In this document: positions 6,198 through 60,914 of the stretch, piece by piece
Numbering within the stretch: position 1 is the stretch's first letter
How the letters are laid out: each line of letters starts with the position of its first letter
Source: a virus
Taxonomy: Duplodnaviria; Caudoviricetes
Length of the DNA stretch: 64,000 nt
Virus record (IMG/VR): IMGVR_UViG_3300032307_000764
Coordinates: 184,192 to 248,191 of that record
Reading direction: 5' to 3' (one strand)
The notes under the pieces: model-generated
What the model was told of the DNA's origin: nothing
What the model saw: the letters and a program-made list of their open reading frames with translations, nothing else
Databases searched by the model: none
Position numbers and translations under genes: made by a program

Positions 6198-6297
6198 AGT
6201 CAGGTGGTGTAATTGGTAACACGGGGTTCGAGTCCCCAATCTTCTCGAAGGGAAGATAAAGGCTGGCAAGATACAGGTTCGAGCCCTGTCCTGACTA
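6198..6297 (+). tRNA. Atypical tRNA-like RNA (possible CGA anticodon, very long extra arm)
   Basis: Acceptor AGTCAGG/CCTGACT, D-arm GTGT/ACAC with GG loop, T-arm ACAGG-TTCGAGC-CCTGT; 100 nt; 4-bp GGGG/CCCC arm. Confidence 0.55.
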
Positions 6298-9057: not shown

Positions 9058-9232
9058 GCCCTTAAAATAGGGGTCCAAAATGCCTAAAAAGGACCCCTAA
9101 AATAGGGGGTAAAAACGGGGGGAGAGACCCCTAAAATAAGGGGGGCTAAAAGGGGTAAAAAGGCCCTTAAAATAGGGGGTAAAACAGGGGGCTAGGACCC
9201 TAAAAACGGGCCTTATATACGTATACTATATA
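9058..9232. repeat. About 35-nt period array of CCC(C/T)TAAAATAGGGG inverted repeats plus a TATACGTATA palindrome
   Basis: Copies near 9059, 9094, 9128, 9164, 9198; palindrome at 9216-9225. Confidence 0.85.
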
Positions 9233-10849: not shown

Positions 10850-11014
10850 ATCATACCATATAAAAATCAAAAAGACCTTCGGGTCTTTTTTTGTGAGATA
10901 ATGATTTGCCCTCCGGGCCCTAGATTTTTCTACAGTTCTTAAAATCGGCCCTGGGGGCCGTGATCTTAGACTGCTTTGAATTCACTTTGATTTTCACGGA
11001 TATATAAGTAAGAT

Positions 11015-12076
11015 ATGAAACATATAAAGACTTTCGCTGCTCTAAATGAATCTTTACAAGATTCTTCTGAGATTTTAGATTTTATTAAAAACTCTCCAGA
11101 AGGAAGGGACTTACTTAAGGTTAGTAAATACCCCACGTTCGAAGAGAATTTCGAGGCCAAAAGATCCGGTAGAGTACATTGTAACGGAATAGGATCTAAG
11201 ACCTATGTAGAAAAAACACCTAGGGGATATTGCTTTCAGAGTCTTTCGAATGGTAAAATATTTGGTCAAGAATGTTACCCAACTATTGAAGAATGTATAA
11301 GAAAATTATGGTCTAATGCAGTTAGTAAATATGTGACTAATAATTACGGTGTTAAAAAACAAGAAATTAGAGATTGGGTATTAGTGAATATACCTGTAGG
11401 TAGTGAATTAGGAAATAAGGAGATATTGGATTCTTTTAGTGAAGCATCTAAAAAAGAAGCTCCAGATTTTGAAGAGATTATTAAAAAAAGCAGATCGATT
11501 AGAATTCTTGAGGATGTATTTGGAGCTAGATTCGCTCGTGCAGAAAATAAGCTAAATCCTAATGATGTCATTTACAAATCAGGACCCATTAATCTTTTTC
11601 AACCATTCGGATTAGATATTTGCGATAATGAAGAAAATCCGTATACTTTCTCTGTAGAGGTTAAGGTTAATCTATCTGGGAAAAATAAATCATCCACTGA
11701 TTATAATAATAATAATAATATAATTTTAGGTGATCCTTCTACCGCTTTAAAATATTTAGATAAAGTTATTCCACCATGGGCTTTAAAAATAGTTGAAAAT
11801 CCTAGTAAATTTATATACTATAGGACTCCTAAGACTTCTCCTGAATTAATAGAATTGTTAAGGAGTCTTTTTCTTAATAACACCGTAGGGTCAACAGTTT
11901 ATGATGCTTTAGATAATGCTTTATCAAGTATTAAATCAAGTAATCCCCTCGCATTTGAATCTGTTATAAAAAAATTAGAATCCGCTGGAGCATTTCCTGA
12001 ATTAACTAGTAAGTACAGAGAATCCGAAAGCGGTACACTAAAAGGAGCATCTATTCTAAATAGATTTGGTATTTAA
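11015..12076 (+). CDS. MKHIK-family protein ending KGASILNRFGI
   Basis: 353-aa ORF. Confidence 0.85.
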   Translation: MKHIKTFAALNESLQDSSEILDFIKNSPEGRDLLKVSKYPTFEENFEAKRSGRVHCNGIGSKTYVEKTPRGYCFQSLSNGKIFGQECYPTIEECIRKLWSNAVSKYVTNNYGVKKQEIRDWVLVNIPVGSELGNKEILDSFSEASKKEAPDFEEIIKKSRSIRILEDVFGARFARAENKLNPNDVIYKSGPINLFQPFGLDICDNEENPYTFSVEVKVNLSGKNKSSTDYNNNNNIILGDPSTALKYLDKVIPPWALKIVENPSKFIYYRTPKTSPELIELLRSLFLNNTVGSTVYDALDNALSSIKSSNPLAFESVIKKLESAGAFPELTSKYRESESGTLKGASILNRFGI

Positions 12077-39007: not shown

Positions 39008-39634
39008 TTATTTTTTAATCCATTGGTAGTAACCTTCCATTACTCCATTATCGTGTCTTTCAAATAGCCCAGACCTGTAAACTGCTTCCACGTTATGCAG
39101 ATTCGATCCCTGATCTTTACCTTTTTCGTCATACACCTTCCATGTATAGTAATGGTGAATGTTTGGCCTAATTGTGAGGTCATCTACTAGTTTATTCTGA
39201 AACCATGACCACCCTTTTTCTGAGTTCTCTAATGCACGTTTCTCTCCTTCCAATTGAAATCCCTTGTGCATTTCTACCGAGTGCTCATAAGATTCTTTAG
39301 CATCCTTTAGACTGTTCTCTTCCCTTTCTTTTCTTTGAGATTCAGAATATCCCAGACTAAATTTGAATTTAGAAACGACCTCTTCCCAAGTGGGAATATT
39401 GTAAGTGCTGATCATGTCAGATACGTAGTCCCATCTGTCTATGCAGTGGATATCAACTTTATTTCCTTCGGTGCTGTAAACCCAGTTACCTTCTTCATCT
39501 AGGTAACTATAAGGTCCGTCCCAATATCCTGCTTTTAATTCTGCAAATCTTGGAATACCCCCCTCCATTCTGATGTGTGCTTCTCCTGAAGGGTCTGCTT
39601 CTTGGAGCATCTTAATAAATTCACTTGTTTTCAT
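39008..39634 (-). CDS. Hypothetical protein; start overlaps the end of the PTH2-like gene
   Basis: 208-aa ORF. Confidence 0.8.
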   Translation of the reverse strand: MKTSEFIKMLQEADPSGEAHIRMEGGIPRFAELKAGYWDGPYSYLDEEGNWVYSTEGNKVDIHCIDRWDYVSDMISTYNIPTWEEVVSKFKFSLGYSESQRKEREENSLKDAKESYEHSVEMHKGFQLEGEKRALENSEKGWSWFQNKLVDDLTIRPNIHHYYTWKVYDEKGKDQGSNLHNVEAVYRSGLFERHDNGVMEGYYQWIKK

Positions 39635-39992
39635 AACTTTCTTTTTTTATTTGATTTTTAGGATTACATAGGGACAAATGAGAAAGGCCCTTACGGATAT
39701 CTGGCGATCCATAAAGGCACAATGATGTATACTCGTCTACGTCTGGCTCGAAAAACAACGATGCCTCTGTTAGACGAGAATATTTCTCATAAAGCTTTAA
39801 TAAATGTTCTTGTGATTTTGCGGAAAGACAAATTATAGAGTTTGACTCTTCTTTCCATTTTTTAAAGACCTCAGGATGCTCGTAAGCGAAGTCTGCAATT
39901 GAATGTGTGGATTGCACCACTTGATAACCTGGGTTGATGTCTTGTCTGGTTATAATGACAAGCTTCGGTTGTTGGAATTTAATCTATTTCAT
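39621..39992 (-). CDS. PTH2-family peptidyl-tRNA hydrolase-like protein with in-frame TAG at codon 3 (ATG AAA TAG ATT...)
   Basis: MK*IKFQQPKLVIITRQDINPGYQVVQSTHSIADF...WKEESNSIICL...FFEPDVDEYTSLCLYG; the track start (GTG 39920) cuts off the conserved first strand. Confidence 0.72.
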
Positions 39993-40015
39993 GGTATCTT
40001 GTTTTTAATTCTACA

Positions 40016-40023
40016 CAAATGTA
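40016..40023 (-). promoter_or_regulatory. TACATTTG (-7 element) upstream of ATG 39992
   Basis: TAnnTTTG followed by a 23-nt A-rich leader. Confidence 0.65.
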
Positions 40024-40080
40024 ATAAAAAGTTTCTAAAGTTTATCGAAAATTCTAAATTTTTTCAAAAAATATTTTACA

Positions 40081-40419
40081 CTATATTTTTAAATTCTTAT
40101 TTCTTTCTCTTTTATATTTTTCTAGAGCATCAGTACACTCCTTGTATTTCTTTATCCTTCTCTCCTCGTTCTCGTCGATAAGCTTTGGATTTTTTTTCAA
40201 TCTTTTTGCCGATTCCACTGCATCCTCAAATTTTTCGAAAAGGTGTGGCTGATGTTGATCAAAAAACTCTACTGATAGTGTCCATGTGTAATCGTATCTT
40301 TTCCACCGATTAAACAAGTTAAATTTCTTTTTTTCCCTATAGTATATGACATAGTGAGTCTTTCTCTCGCTAAAAGGCTCTACTATAATCTCTACTTCTT
40401 TACCCTCGTATTTTTTCAT
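40081..40419 (-). CDS. Hypothetical basic protein
   Basis: 112-aa ORF. Confidence 0.75.
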   Translation of the reverse strand: MKKYEGKEVEIIVEPFSERKTHYVIYYREKKKFNLFNRWKRYDYTWTLSVEFFDQHQPHLFEKFEDAVESAKRLKKNPKLIDENEERRIKKYKECTDALEKYKRERNKNLKI

Positions 40420-40554
40420 TCTCTTATTTATAATCCTCCGTATTTTTTAAAGTCCTCGTTGTAATCGTCCCATCTTCTCTTGAACCAATTAACTATTGAT
40501 TCTCCTATTTTTTCTACTACTTTCATATTATTAAGATTTTAATTCTATTTTATA

Positions 40555-41415
40555 TTACATAATTGGAGATTGGTTGTCAGGTGTACATGGCATTAAAAAA
40601 CGTAGATATCCTTTTTCTTGAGAGAATATAGGAGTCTCTAGATCAGCTTCCCATTTACTTCTTTTGTAAGATTCAATTACGCGAGTCTTTCCGTCCATGA
40701 TAGGCTCGCTCTTTTTAGGATACACATGTTCAACTTTTCGAATAAGACTACCTCTCTTTTCTCTTGGGCTATAGTCATTCCAGTTGATTCCCTTTTGAAA
40801 AATCATCTCCTGCATCTCGTCAGTCTTCTTACCATGCAATTCTTTTTGTGAATATAGACTTTGAGCAACAGAAGAAATTGAATTTCTAGTAGCATCTTGC
40901 TGTCTCCAGATAAAGTAGTTAATCACCTCTTCTTGATAAGGGATCTGAAATACACGAGCGTCAAACATTGCAAGTTTGAAGATTTCAATTTCCGTTTCTG
41001 AAATGTAACATTCATCTCTAAACTTTGGTTCAATACCAGAATTTCTAGCAAATCTTGCCATTCTCAATTGATTAAACTTTGCAGTTGCCAATGAAGCAGC
41101 GATACTCGCCATTTTCTGCAAGTTACAGTCAAACCAAGCATGAGTTGAGATGTCATCGTAATCAGTGATGAGAATTGAAATCTCATCTGATTGAACGTAT
41201 CCAAATTTTGCTCCTTGGATATTCTGACATAAGTACTCGGTTGTTTTGTTCATGTCTTCCATTAACCCGACATCGAATGGACGATTAAGTCCTTTGGTGT
41301 AAGTGTGGAATGCTTTTCCGTCAATACGGATGATCGTGTTGGTGCGACGTACCAACTTGTGTCGTGTTCGGTCTTCGTAGAAGTCCTTCATTCTGTCGCC
41401 TAGCGAATCTTTCAT
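40555..41415 (-). CDS. thg1: tRNA(His) guanylyltransferase Thg1-like protein (3'-5' polymerase)
   Basis: LGDRMK...IIRIDGKAFHTYT...YVQSDEISIL...QKMASIAASLAT...FDARVF...YFIWRQQDATRNSIS. Confidence 0.93.
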   Translation of the reverse strand: MKDSLGDRMKDFYEDRTRHKLVRRTNTIIRIDGKAFHTYTKGLNRPFDVGLMEDMNKTTEYLCQNIQGAKFGYVQSDEISILITDYDDISTHAWFDCNLQKMASIAASLATAKFNQLRMARFARNSGIEPKFRDECYISETEIEIFKLAMFDARVFQIPYQEEVINYFIWRQQDATRNSISSVAQSLYSQKELHGKKTDEMQEMIFQKGINWNDYSPREKRGSLIRKVEHVYPKKSEPIMDGKTRVIESYKRSKWEADLETPIFSQEKGYLRFLMPCTPDNQSPIM

Positions 41416-41420
41416 TTATT

Positions 41421-41921
41421 TTAATTTTCAATTACAATTTCCTCAACCTCCTCAAATATGAAATCATCATAATCTAAACCTAACCACTTAAATCTTCCTT
41501 CGTGGTTTAGATAATGATTGAATACTTTTATCATGTCATCCACCTGTGGCATGATCTCAAGAAGATTAGATGACTTGCTCTCTAATACGAATGTGAGTGG
41601 TTCTGGTCCCGTATCACTAATGTAAGTTGTAATTTTCCAATCTCCTCCATATTGCCAATAACGCCTATCGATGCAAGATTGAATGAATCTCAATGCTGAC
41701 AGGTTGTGACACTTGAAAAAGATAAGATATGGTTTGTAATTGTGGCCACAGCACGATTCATTTGTTTCAATCCCTTTAATTGAATTAAGAGTGTCACACA
41801 GGTCAACACATTCGGCGTCCATCCATCCTCTATCCTGATTGTCTTTACCCATTTGGCTTAAGATCTCGCTATTACTAAGAACCTTGTCGCCGTAATCTAC
41901 TTTGTTGTTTAATCTTTTCAT
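41421..41921 (-). CDS. Hypothetical protein, weak resemblance to the TYW3-like N-terminal motif
   Basis: D..CVDLCDTLNSIKGIETNESCCGH. Confidence 0.45.
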   Translation of the reverse strand: MKRLNNKVDYGDKVLSNSEILSQMGKDNQDRGWMDAECVDLCDTLNSIKGIETNESCCGHNYKPYLIFFKCHNLSALRFIQSCIDRRYWQYGGDWKITTYISDTGPEPLTFVLESKSSNLLEIMPQVDDMIKVFNHYLNHEGRFKWLGLDYDDFIFEEVEEIVIEN

Positions 41922-41935
41922 TCTTTATTATTTAG

Positions 41936-42018
41936 AAGTCAGGACAGGATTCGAACCTGTATTGGCTCCATCCTTAACGGATGGGTTCGGATCCCACACC
42001 TCTTTACGCCACCTGACT
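41936..42018 (-). tRNA. Atypical tRNA-like RNA (ambiguous anticodon, CCG or TTA reading)
   Basis: Acceptor AGTCAGG/CCTGACT, T-arm ACAGG-TTCGAAT-CCTGT; weak D-arm. Confidence 0.55.
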
Positions 42019-42265: not shown

Positions 42266-42346
42266 TGGTCTTAGCAGGATTCGAACCCGATGTAATCCGT
42301 TTTAGAGGCGGACCTACCTAGCCATGGTAGTTTAAACTCTAAGACC
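42266..42346 (-). tRNA. Putative amber suppressor tRNA (anticodon CUA) with non-canonical D-region
   Basis: Acceptor GGTCTTA(G)/(C)TAAGACC, anticodon arm TCCGC-CTCTAAA-ACGGA, T-loop TTCGAAT, discriminator A. Confidence 0.62.
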
Positions 42347-42362
42347 TTTTTAATTTATAATC

Positions 42363-42399
42363 CAAATCTATAGATAATACTAAAAATAAAAAAATGATT
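42363..42399 (-). promoter_or_regulatory. Bipartite early promoter directly upstream of the CUA tRNA
   Basis: Minus strand AATCATTTTTT from 42399 and TAGATTTG from 42370 (29-nt spacing). Confidence 0.8.
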
Positions 42400-59734: not shown

Positions 59735-59786
59735 TGCTGTAGAAATTTCTTTTTTTTTATTAAATATAAATTTCTACATTTGCCAT

Positions 59787-60038
59787 ATGAAAAAATCTTT
59801 GTTAATATTATCTTTGATTTCTCTATTCTTTACATCTTGTTTAGAAATAAAAAAGAAAGAAGAAATTATAAAATGCGTAGTTACATCTTGTGAAGAAATA
59901 GAGGCTAGTTCTGTACACGAGGAAATGAATAGACCTCTTGGGTATAGATTAGAAACATCTTGTGGAAGATCTTTTAGAACTAAGATTAAGTACCAATCCG
60001 GAGATACTATAGAAGTTACCAAAGTTAGCTATCAATAG
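59787..60038 (+). CDS. Putative lipoprotein
   Basis: LFFTSC lipobox; TACATTTG upstream. Confidence 0.75.
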   Translation: MKKSLLILSLISLFFTSCLEIKKKEEIIKCVVTSCEEIEASSVHEEMNRPLGYRLETSCGRSFRTKIKYQSGDTIEVTKVSYQ

Positions 60039-60080: not shown

Positions 60081-60914
60081 ATGTTACTTAAAAATGGATC
60101 TAAGGGAGAAGATGTAAAAAAACTCCAAGAAAAATTGGGCCTTACCGCAGATGGTTCTTTCGGTCCTGGCACAGAAACAAAAGTTAAAGAATGGCAAGCA
60201 GCTAATGGACTAAAAGCCGACGGTATTGTTGGAGCCGGTACTTGGGCTAAGATGTTTGGTTCAGCACCAGTAGCAGCAGCTCCTGCATCAGCACCAGTTT
60301 CTATACCACCTTCAGCTTTCAAGCTAGAAAATTTAAAGGGACATATTCCTGATGCAGTTCTTGCACAGATCCCAGATACAGCAGCTAAATTTAATATCAC
60401 TAACACATTAAGACTTGCACACTTCTTAGCACAGTGTGGCCACGAATCTGGTGGTTTTAAAGCTGTTTCAGAAAATCTTAACTACTCTGCTGATGGCCTT
60501 AAAAAGATCTTCCCTAAATATTTCCCAGGAAATCTTAATGAGTCTTATGCAAGACAACCAGAGAAAATTGCTTCTAGAGTTTATGGAAGTAGAATGGGTA
60601 ACGGCGACGAAGCTTCTAAAGAAGGATTCAAATTTAGAGGTAGAGGTTATATCCAATTAACTGGTAAATCTAACTATGCTTCTTTCGATAAATTCGTAGA
60701 CGATGATATACTAGGAAATCCTGATCTAGTTGCTACTAAATACCCTTTAATGTCTGCAGCATTCTTCTTCAATAACAATAGCTTATGGTCAATTTGTGAC
60801 AGAGGAGCGGACGATGCTACAGTTACAGCAGTAACGAAAAGAGTAAACGGGGGAACTATTGGATTACCTGATAGAATCAAGCACTTTAAGGAGTATTATT
60901 CTTTATTAAAATAA
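60081..60914 (+). CDS. Endolysin: PG-binding domain plus GH19 chitinase/lysozyme-like domain
   Basis: GSKGEDVKKLQ..LG..ADG.FG..T; RLAHFLAQCGHESGG; FRGRGYIQLTGKSNY; TKRVNGG. Confidence 0.92.
   Translation: MLLKNGSKGEDVKKLQEKLGLTADGSFGPGTETKVKEWQAANGLKADGIVGAGTWAKMFGSAPVAAAPASAPVSIPPSAFKLENLKGHIPDAVLAQIPDTAAKFNITNTLRLAHFLAQCGHESGGFKAVSENLNYSADGLKKIFPKYFPGNLNESYARQPEKIASRVYGSRMGNGDEASKEGFKFRGRGYIQLTGKSNYASFDKFVDDDILGNPDLVATKYPLMSAAFFFNNNSLWSICDRGADDATVTAVTKRVNGGTIGLPDRIKHFKEYYSLLK

Follow-up and report, generated by a model that had tools for sequence, protein, structure and literature searches.

An early in-frame amber codon in a phage PTH2-like gene and a linked, non-canonical CUA tRNA: a probable single-gene translational gate

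Synthesis of release factor RF2 (prfB) is autoregulated via an early in-frame UGA and a programmed frameshift, and the bar-type minigenes of phage lambda are fixed two-codon open reading frames in which a specific second codon drives the drop-off of one tRNA. Phage-encoded suppressor tRNAs are known to accompany stop-codon recoding, in which TAG is read as Gln (code 15; Borges et al., bioRxiv 10.1101/2021.08.26.457843; PMC9523058), and the same authors propose recoding as a translational timer (bioRxiv 10.1101/2021.08.26.457843). The papers on phages XacN1 (PMC5852040) and Summit (PMC9022506) state that the target gene of the suppressor tRNA was not found, and the announcement of phage pT24 (PMC5502841) names no target for its suppressor tRNA. 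tRNAs of the 8/4 type have been described in phages (Ser and His), and in Acidobacteria they may act as nonsense suppressors (Mukai et al., PMC5389517); PTH2 has been noted in jumbo phages (PMC7824862). The word "hydrolase" is absent from the text of the recoding preprint (bioRxiv 10.1101/2021.08.26.457843), and searches of the full-text literature returned no description of an amber-led PTH2.

The window, by which we mean the whole stretch of DNA analyzed, comprises the final 64 kb of one viral contig (248,191 bp, ~34% GC) that belongs to a freshwater jumbo phage. It contains a PTH2-like gene on the minus strand (39621..39992; 123 codons including an in-frame TAG as codon 3), the 5′ end of which reads ATG (39992-39990), AAA, TAG (39986-39984), ATT, AAA, TTC. 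Past the amber codon (39984..39986, read directly from the sequence) the frame meets no stop until the TGA at 39623-39621, and the earliest ATG, GTG, or TTG is GTG 39920 (codon 25), 21 codons on. The +1 frame runs into a TAA within 12 codons, and the gene goes on in the 0 frame. An A-rich leader precedes the start codon (39990..39992), and farther upstream on the same strand stands TACATTTG (40016..40023), which at 40023-40016 fits the Bacteroidota −7 promoter consensus TAnnTTTG and which we take to be a putative promoter box. The positions that the first-pass annotation gave for this box, the ATG, the TAG, GTG 39920, and the next ATG downstream all hold on the minus strand.

The 123-residue product expected from read-through matches Pfam PF01981 with an E of 2e-5 and 25.2 bits, marginally over the cut-off of 23, and the match is restricted to model positions 2-71, starting at protein residue 10; against the NCBIfam Pth2 equivalog the protein scores 25 bits, far under the cut-off of 126. 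An AF2 model based on 69 homologues (pLDDT of 88) nevertheless has the Pth2 alpha/beta fold, since each of the best 15 Foldseek matches in the PDB belongs to the Pth2 family or has a very similar fold (2zv3, 3erj, 1wn2, 1q7s, and 1xty among them; TM 0.54-0.74, E down to 2e-6). Twenty residues are invariant among the 69 sequences. The conserved Gly-Lys lysine that precedes the AQxxH helix is reportedly catalytic in Sulfolobus Pth2; an HMM alignment places an invariant tyrosine (Tyr23) opposite this lysine in the phage family. Because of the low equivalog score and the tyrosine in place of lysine, we use the label "PTH2-like"; ordinary peptidyl-tRNA might not be the substrate of this enzyme. Strand β1 of the model comprises residues 10-16 and is thus encoded downstream of the TAG but ahead of the next codon that could serve as a start. 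Initiation at GTG 39920 would therefore be predicted to destroy the fold by deleting this strand, as had been anticipated from family resemblance. Residues 1-3 of the model are disordered, for which reason any residue inserted at the TAG should be tolerated.

A scan of IMG/VR for PTH2-like homologues yielded 44 loci; the set of TAG leaders comprises 38 distinct N-termini recognized by pattern, as well as L033, L034, L048, and L049. Forty-three distinct homologues (43-96% identity), among them that of the cultured Tenacibaculum phage pT24, have an in-frame TAG as codon 3, 4, or 5, and neither TAA nor TGA ever occupies the early-stop position in these 43. The leader consists of an ATG, one to three sense codons, the TAG, and then ATT, ATA, or GTA. 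It is present in the more distant loci L008, L010, and L011; the contigs behind the closest database proteins all read ATG-AAA/AAC-TAG-ATT, and the TAG is absent only from the remotest relatives (L051-L055, 26-40% identity). With the TAG conserved and an ATG in front of it in every homologue, the comparison argues for ATG 39992 as the natural start, in agreement with the original proposal. A megablast search of the locus against phage records returned no match.

The recurrence of the TAG in other records also bears on whether the stop might be a sequencing error or a private mutation, as considered at the outset, or else the mark of a dead gene. Contig X2, from a different sample, keeps the TAG, as does X20, a 151-nt contig from a wetland metatranscriptome, with 0 differences over 39900-40005; both are assembled contigs and so speak to presence and not to expression level. 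Nothing beyond the presence of the stop codon itself points to error or decay, the fold with its invariant residues is intact, and the TAG, which recurs in 43 homologues and in independent contigs, is neither chance nor error; we give a faulty or dead gene next to no credence. As a separate observation, contigs of the X20 library cover 39676-40005 at 99-100% identity but not the neighboring genes at 40030-41850, which hints at transcription of the PTH2-like gene, contigs being no proof of it.

Database homologues with Gln at the TAG site match their own records only if TAG is translated as Gln ("with_TAG=Q"), that is, as code 15 calls. This Gln is thus a gene-calling artefact that carries no information on the inserted residue, and we rejected the identification of Gln as that residue on the basis of these proteins. 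Public collections contain family members (P0005-P0121) with Gln at position 3-5 that derive from short contigs called as code 15; other public entries of the family begin at an internal GTG, ATG, or TTG and are truncated. Gene callers truncate amber-led genes or flip whole contigs to code 15, and protein databases now carry a false Gln at the TAG site.

That gene callers picked code 15 for short contigs of the PTH2-like gene could be taken as a sign that the early TAG is a trace of, or a first step toward, reassignment of TAG, with sense TAGs left in a few genes and no regulation attached. Such a scenario would be in keeping with the CUA tRNAs of recoded phages and with the finding that standard-code relatives can gain suppressors first (bioRxiv 10.1101/2021.08.26.457843). 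The genome at hand, however, keeps to the standard code. Treating TAG as sense brings no gain in coding density (0.892, vs 0.893 under code 11); 52 of 327 greedily chosen genes (16%) stop at TAG, with back-up stops that are not unusual; and TAGs between long open frames are no commoner than TAAs or TGAs in such places. The PTH2-like gene is the sole gene in the 248-kb genome in which an ATG-x-TAG leader is followed by a long frame without a start. Flat coding density, the lack of a TAG excess, the single leader gene, and the 52 TAG stops led us to reject genome-wide recoding. The genome encodes no release-factor domain. Apparent recoding in two relatives, L013 and L035, is likewise an artefact: their TAG-rich ORFs either are out-of-frame copies of an open-ended ORF of 1033 aa or run antisense to a repeat gene. 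Moreover, the TAG is seen in two gene families only (the second is described below), at codons 3-8, with no counterpart elsewhere in the 248-kb genome, and lineages with as little as 43% identity have kept it, which is not the look of neutral scatter; reassignment, past or incipient, is accordingly a very improbable account. Look-alike early-TAG genes at 506 and 59700 of the window were discarded, as both precede the real starts and belong to promoter regions.

The CUA tRNA that the first-pass annotation had noticed some 2.3 kb upstream does exist, on the same strand as the PTH2-like gene and 2.27 kb upstream of it (42266..42346, minus strand), and it adopts a non-canonical fold that is backed by covariation. 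Sixteen nucleotides upstream of it stands TAGATTTG (42363..42370, minus strand), a box of the TAnnTTTG type with a putative function. ARAGORN makes no call at 42266-42346, and the Rfam tRNA model (RF00005) scores the sequence at 26.6 bits, under the gathering threshold of 29. We defined the structure from 14 homologues at relatives' loci. The tRNA at 42266-42346 has an 8-bp acceptor stem, a 4-bp T stem, and a 5-bp D-like hairpin, which across the 14 sequences varies between 4 and 5 bp with a loop of 4-7 nt that usually contains GG. The eighth acceptor pair is always paired (GC in nine, AU in two, GU in two, and CG in one), and so is every one of the four T-stem pairs in all 14. The anticodon stem has 5 bp with a closing pair that is mismatched in 11 of 14, the anticodon loop CUCUAAA being effectively 9 nt; the variable region measures 5-6 nt in the family, and the discriminator base is A, except for a G in 2 of the 14 aligned sequences. 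Paired cells amount to 92.8% across the homologues vs 35-45% in slid controls, changes on both sides are found in 20 of 26 pairs, none of 500 shuffles attains any of the observed pairing measures, and the MFE fold of the single CUA tRNA sequence is the same as the comparative fold. An 8-nt linker, nucleotides 10-12 of which pair with the variable region in seven base combinations, is treated as a lead only, because the registers were picked after the sequences had been viewed. Two unorthodox decoding modes were rejected: quadruplet (UAGA) decoding by the 9-nt loop, as the +1 frame closes at once, and an initiator-like role, as position 1 forms a pair with position 72 and none of the leaders lacks an upstream ATG. 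Since ARAGORN and the Rfam gathering threshold miss this structurally unusual 8/4 class, suppressor tRNAs of this kind escape standard tRNA finders and will be under-counted in phage surveys.

We asked whether TAG-bearing homologues co-occur with a CUA tRNA, as the first-pass annotation had suggested checking. They do so at ~30 of 39 distinct loci within 10 kb, mostly with the tRNA 30-700 nt upstream on the same strand. Three detection methods were pooled for this count: ARAGORN, pattern matching by regular expression, and a scanner that checks stems. On five shuffled versions of the 248-kb genome the scanner found nothing, and on the real sequence it found a single hit. Canonical as well as 8/4 CUA tRNAs are found at the relatives' loci, a mix that fits the disordered, residue-tolerant N-terminus (residues 1-3) of the structural model. 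At nine relatives' loci no CUA tRNA was found within 10 kb, and loose pattern scans of the relatives' whole records returned mostly noise. These nine loci, together with the 52 phage genes for which TAG is the normal stop and which argue against strong suppression, would be compatible with a role of the early UAG that involves no phage tRNA: the stop would keep a potentially toxic tRNA-deacylating enzyme at a very low level, a little protein would arise via basal read-through by host near-cognate tRNAs, and the CUA tRNA would serve elsewhere. We consider this unlikely, given that all of ~60 leaders in two gene families have TAG and not one has TAA or TGA, that in most cases the matching CUA tRNA comes directly before the gene, and that a weak start site would be a simpler way to cap the dose.

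The second family with such a leader encodes an HD-domain protein (~185 aa, Pfam HD) that is unrelated to PTH2. The HD gene adjoins PTH2 in relatives (for example, L013:10348-10926, L008:~11003-11590, and L042:9995-10903; also in L010, L014-L018, L020, L023, L025-L031, L036, L037, L040, and L041) and is absent from the genome of the window. All 16 distinct stand-alone copies harbor the leader ATG-N(1-6)-TAG-ATT, and at five distinct loci the HD gene and PTH2 seemingly form one fused reading frame with a lone TAG at its head (apparent fusions in L042-L047 and L050, with the open junction frame translated for L042). The same leader on an unrelated gene suggests that it is a portable signal and that the PTH2-like and HD enzymes are functionally tied. 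In pT24 (L061, LC168164.1 194083-195036) the PTH2-like gene begins ATG-AAA-TAG-ATA, and this frame encodes the PTH2-like domain and a C-terminal extension. GenBank starts the corresponding CDS (BPT24_235) at an internal ATG, the true frame start being 135 nt upstream, and an annotated tRNA-Sup is found 2.5 kb upstream of the gene.

Codons of eight kinds precede the TAG (AAC, AAG, ACT, AAA, TTG, AAT, AGC, and CTA), which speaks against the original suggestion that the leader acts as a bar-type minigene on tRNA-Lys; with a nonconserved codon before the TAG and one to three sense codons in front of it, that idea is unsupported. The codon that follows the TAG is ATT in 34, ATA in two, and GTA in two of the 38 tabulated leaders, and hence always encodes Ile or Val. 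The base 3′ of the TAG is A or G in the homologues, and A or G at this position reportedly favors amber suppression (work of Bossi and of Miller). Protein structure alone would not account for an ATT that is nearly invariant in two unrelated families, and a requirement of sequence context suggests itself. This ATT, found in 34 of 38 PTH2 and in nearly all HD leaders although the proteins are unrelated, is also what lends weight to the main alternative to suppressor gating, a start-stop minicistron in which ribosomes would terminate at the UAG and re-initiate at the adjacent AUU, with a suppressor unneeded. However, GTA (twice) and ATA also follow the TAG, and GTA is no start codon; the alternation of Ile and Val is more in line with elongation than with initiation; and the exclusive use of TAG and the linked CUA tRNA would be left unexplained. 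Re-initiation thus has only a slim chance of being the explanation.

We favor, with fair confidence, the reading that the phage CUA tRNA gates translation of the PTH2-like gene. Ribosomes would initiate at ATG 39992 and meet the UAG at codon 3; without suppression a dipeptide would be released there, and the full 123-residue protein would be made only if the CUA tRNA (42266-42346) is transcribed, matured, and charged and outcompetes RF1. We infer both the charging of this tRNA and its decoding of the PTH2-like UAG. The level of the PTH2-like enzyme should then track suppressor tRNA activity. What argues for gating is the exclusive use of TAG, the Ile or Val codon next to it with its initial A or G, the position of β1, the disordered residues 1-3, the linked CUA tRNA, the standard code of the genome, the HD leader, and pT24. 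Since more than 40 diverged phages share this layout, the enzyme is probably made only when a tRNA overrides the stop, and the tRNA and the amber-led gene appear to form a conserved cassette of large phages that otherwise use the standard code. An efficient suppressor should be costly, because 52 ordinary phage genes end in TAG; these genes and the nine loci without a nearby CUA tRNA argue against strong, constitutive suppression, and read-through may be weak or timed. As for the purpose of the gate, we prefer to think that the dose of tRNA-end-processing enzymes (the PTH2-like one here, joined by HD in relatives) is made to follow suppressor activity, perhaps in a negative feedback loop. A closed homeostat, in which the PTH2-like enzyme (with HD in relatives) would act on the 3′ end of the 8/4 CUA tRNA such that the charged suppressor drives its own discharger, is a doubtful extension of this idea; if true, UAG read-through would be held at a set low level in a phage, and in some cells, for which UAG is still a stop.

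The gate may extend to the next gene. The PTH2-like stop overlaps ATG 39634 of a 208-aa gene (39008..39634, minus strand) by 14 nt, so the overlap reported in the first-pass annotation is real, and it recurs in relatives, where the identity of the downstream gene varies by lineage. On this arrangement, the 208-aa gene may be translationally coupled to, and perhaps gated with, the PTH2-like gene. Full-length homologues with 48-81% identity are found near PTH2 in L001, L012, L018, L021, L026, L035, L036, and L046, and the genes downstream of PTH2 in L008, L010, and L011 are unrelated to it. The protein is strongly conserved, with motifs GYWDGPYSY, KGWTWFQNK, and HxYYTW, and has no Pfam, PHROG-function, NCBIfam, or PDB-fold match.

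Upstream, between the tRNAs and the PTH2-like gene, is a gene for a Thg1-like tRNA 5′-end (3′-5′) polymerase (40555..41415, minus strand; Pfam Thg1 E 1.8e-27, PHROG 4717 E 2e-88); conserved linkage of Thg1 was rejected, as among the relatives only L013 and L048 have it close to PTH2. A second tRNA-like gene with a long variable region (41936..42018, minus strand) scores 32.1 bits with the Rfam tRNA model and is called "Arg CCG" by ARAGORN. Its homologues lie directly upstream of PTH2 in L001, L004, L007, and L012, with anticodon-arm regions that are not conserved. The wider tRNA-like family includes 41936-42018 (minus strand) and 6198-6297 (plus strand) of the window, L007:819-909, L012:~9086-9156, and two copies in L024. 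Members have acceptor, D, and T arms in common (AGTCAGG...CCTGACT) and dissimilar anticodon-arm regions of 17-45 nt, and often lie between the CUA tRNA and PTH2; the copy at 6198 has a T-arm-like hairpin inside. Elsewhere in the window, an ORF with a lipoprotein signal (59787-60038, plus strand) has TACATTTG ahead of it at 59772-59779 and ends in TAG. An endolysin-like gene (60081-60914, plus strand), the product of which starts with a sequence that by eye resembles a peptidoglycan-binding domain, lies in frame 14 codons downstream, and UAG read-through would fuse the two.

Comparison with known systems brings out what is particular to this locus. As in code-15 phages, a phage CUA tRNA (42266-42346) is expected to decode an in-frame TAG in a standard-code host; unlike in those phages, the standard code is used here and 16% of genes stop at TAG, and the TAG is found in one gene (two families in relatives), always among the first few codons and with the tRNA beside the gene. 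If the gate is real, it would represent a natural single-gene translational switch made from a tRNA and a stop codon, distinct from whole-genome recoding. Like prfB, the locus has an early in-frame stop in a translation-factor-like gene, the synthesis of which would hang on how that stop is decoded; unlike in prfB, the 0 frame is open and there is no frameshift, a dedicated tRNA is expected, and feedback is conjecture only. The default product would resemble lambda bar minigenes, being a mini-ORF of two to four codons with a stop; here, in contrast, the second codon is neither conserved nor specific for Lys or Ile, and the frame runs on into a conserved enzyme. In the lengths of its acceptor stem (8 bp) and T stem (4 bp) the CUA tRNA resembles the 8/4 and 9/3 tRNAs and allo-tRNAs; it differs from them in that it has neither a long variable arm nor a long D stem with a tetraloop, and in that it has an 8-nt linker, part of which appears to pair with the variable region, and a discriminator A or G. 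The PTH2-like protein has the same fold as archaeal and eukaryotic Pth2 (PF01981; 2zv3, 1wn2, 1q7s, and 1xty), from which it is set apart by a score far under the equivalog cut-off and by the invariant Tyr in place of the Gly-Lys lysine. Finally, XacN1, Summit, and pT24 are, like this phage, standard-code phages with a CUA tRNA, and XacN1 also encodes a PTH; unlike in the XacN1 and Summit reports, a target is visible in pT24, though annotated from an internal ATG. The cassette thus offers a concrete, conserved candidate target for the orphan amber-suppressor tRNAs of standard-code phages, and pT24 a cultured system in which to test it.
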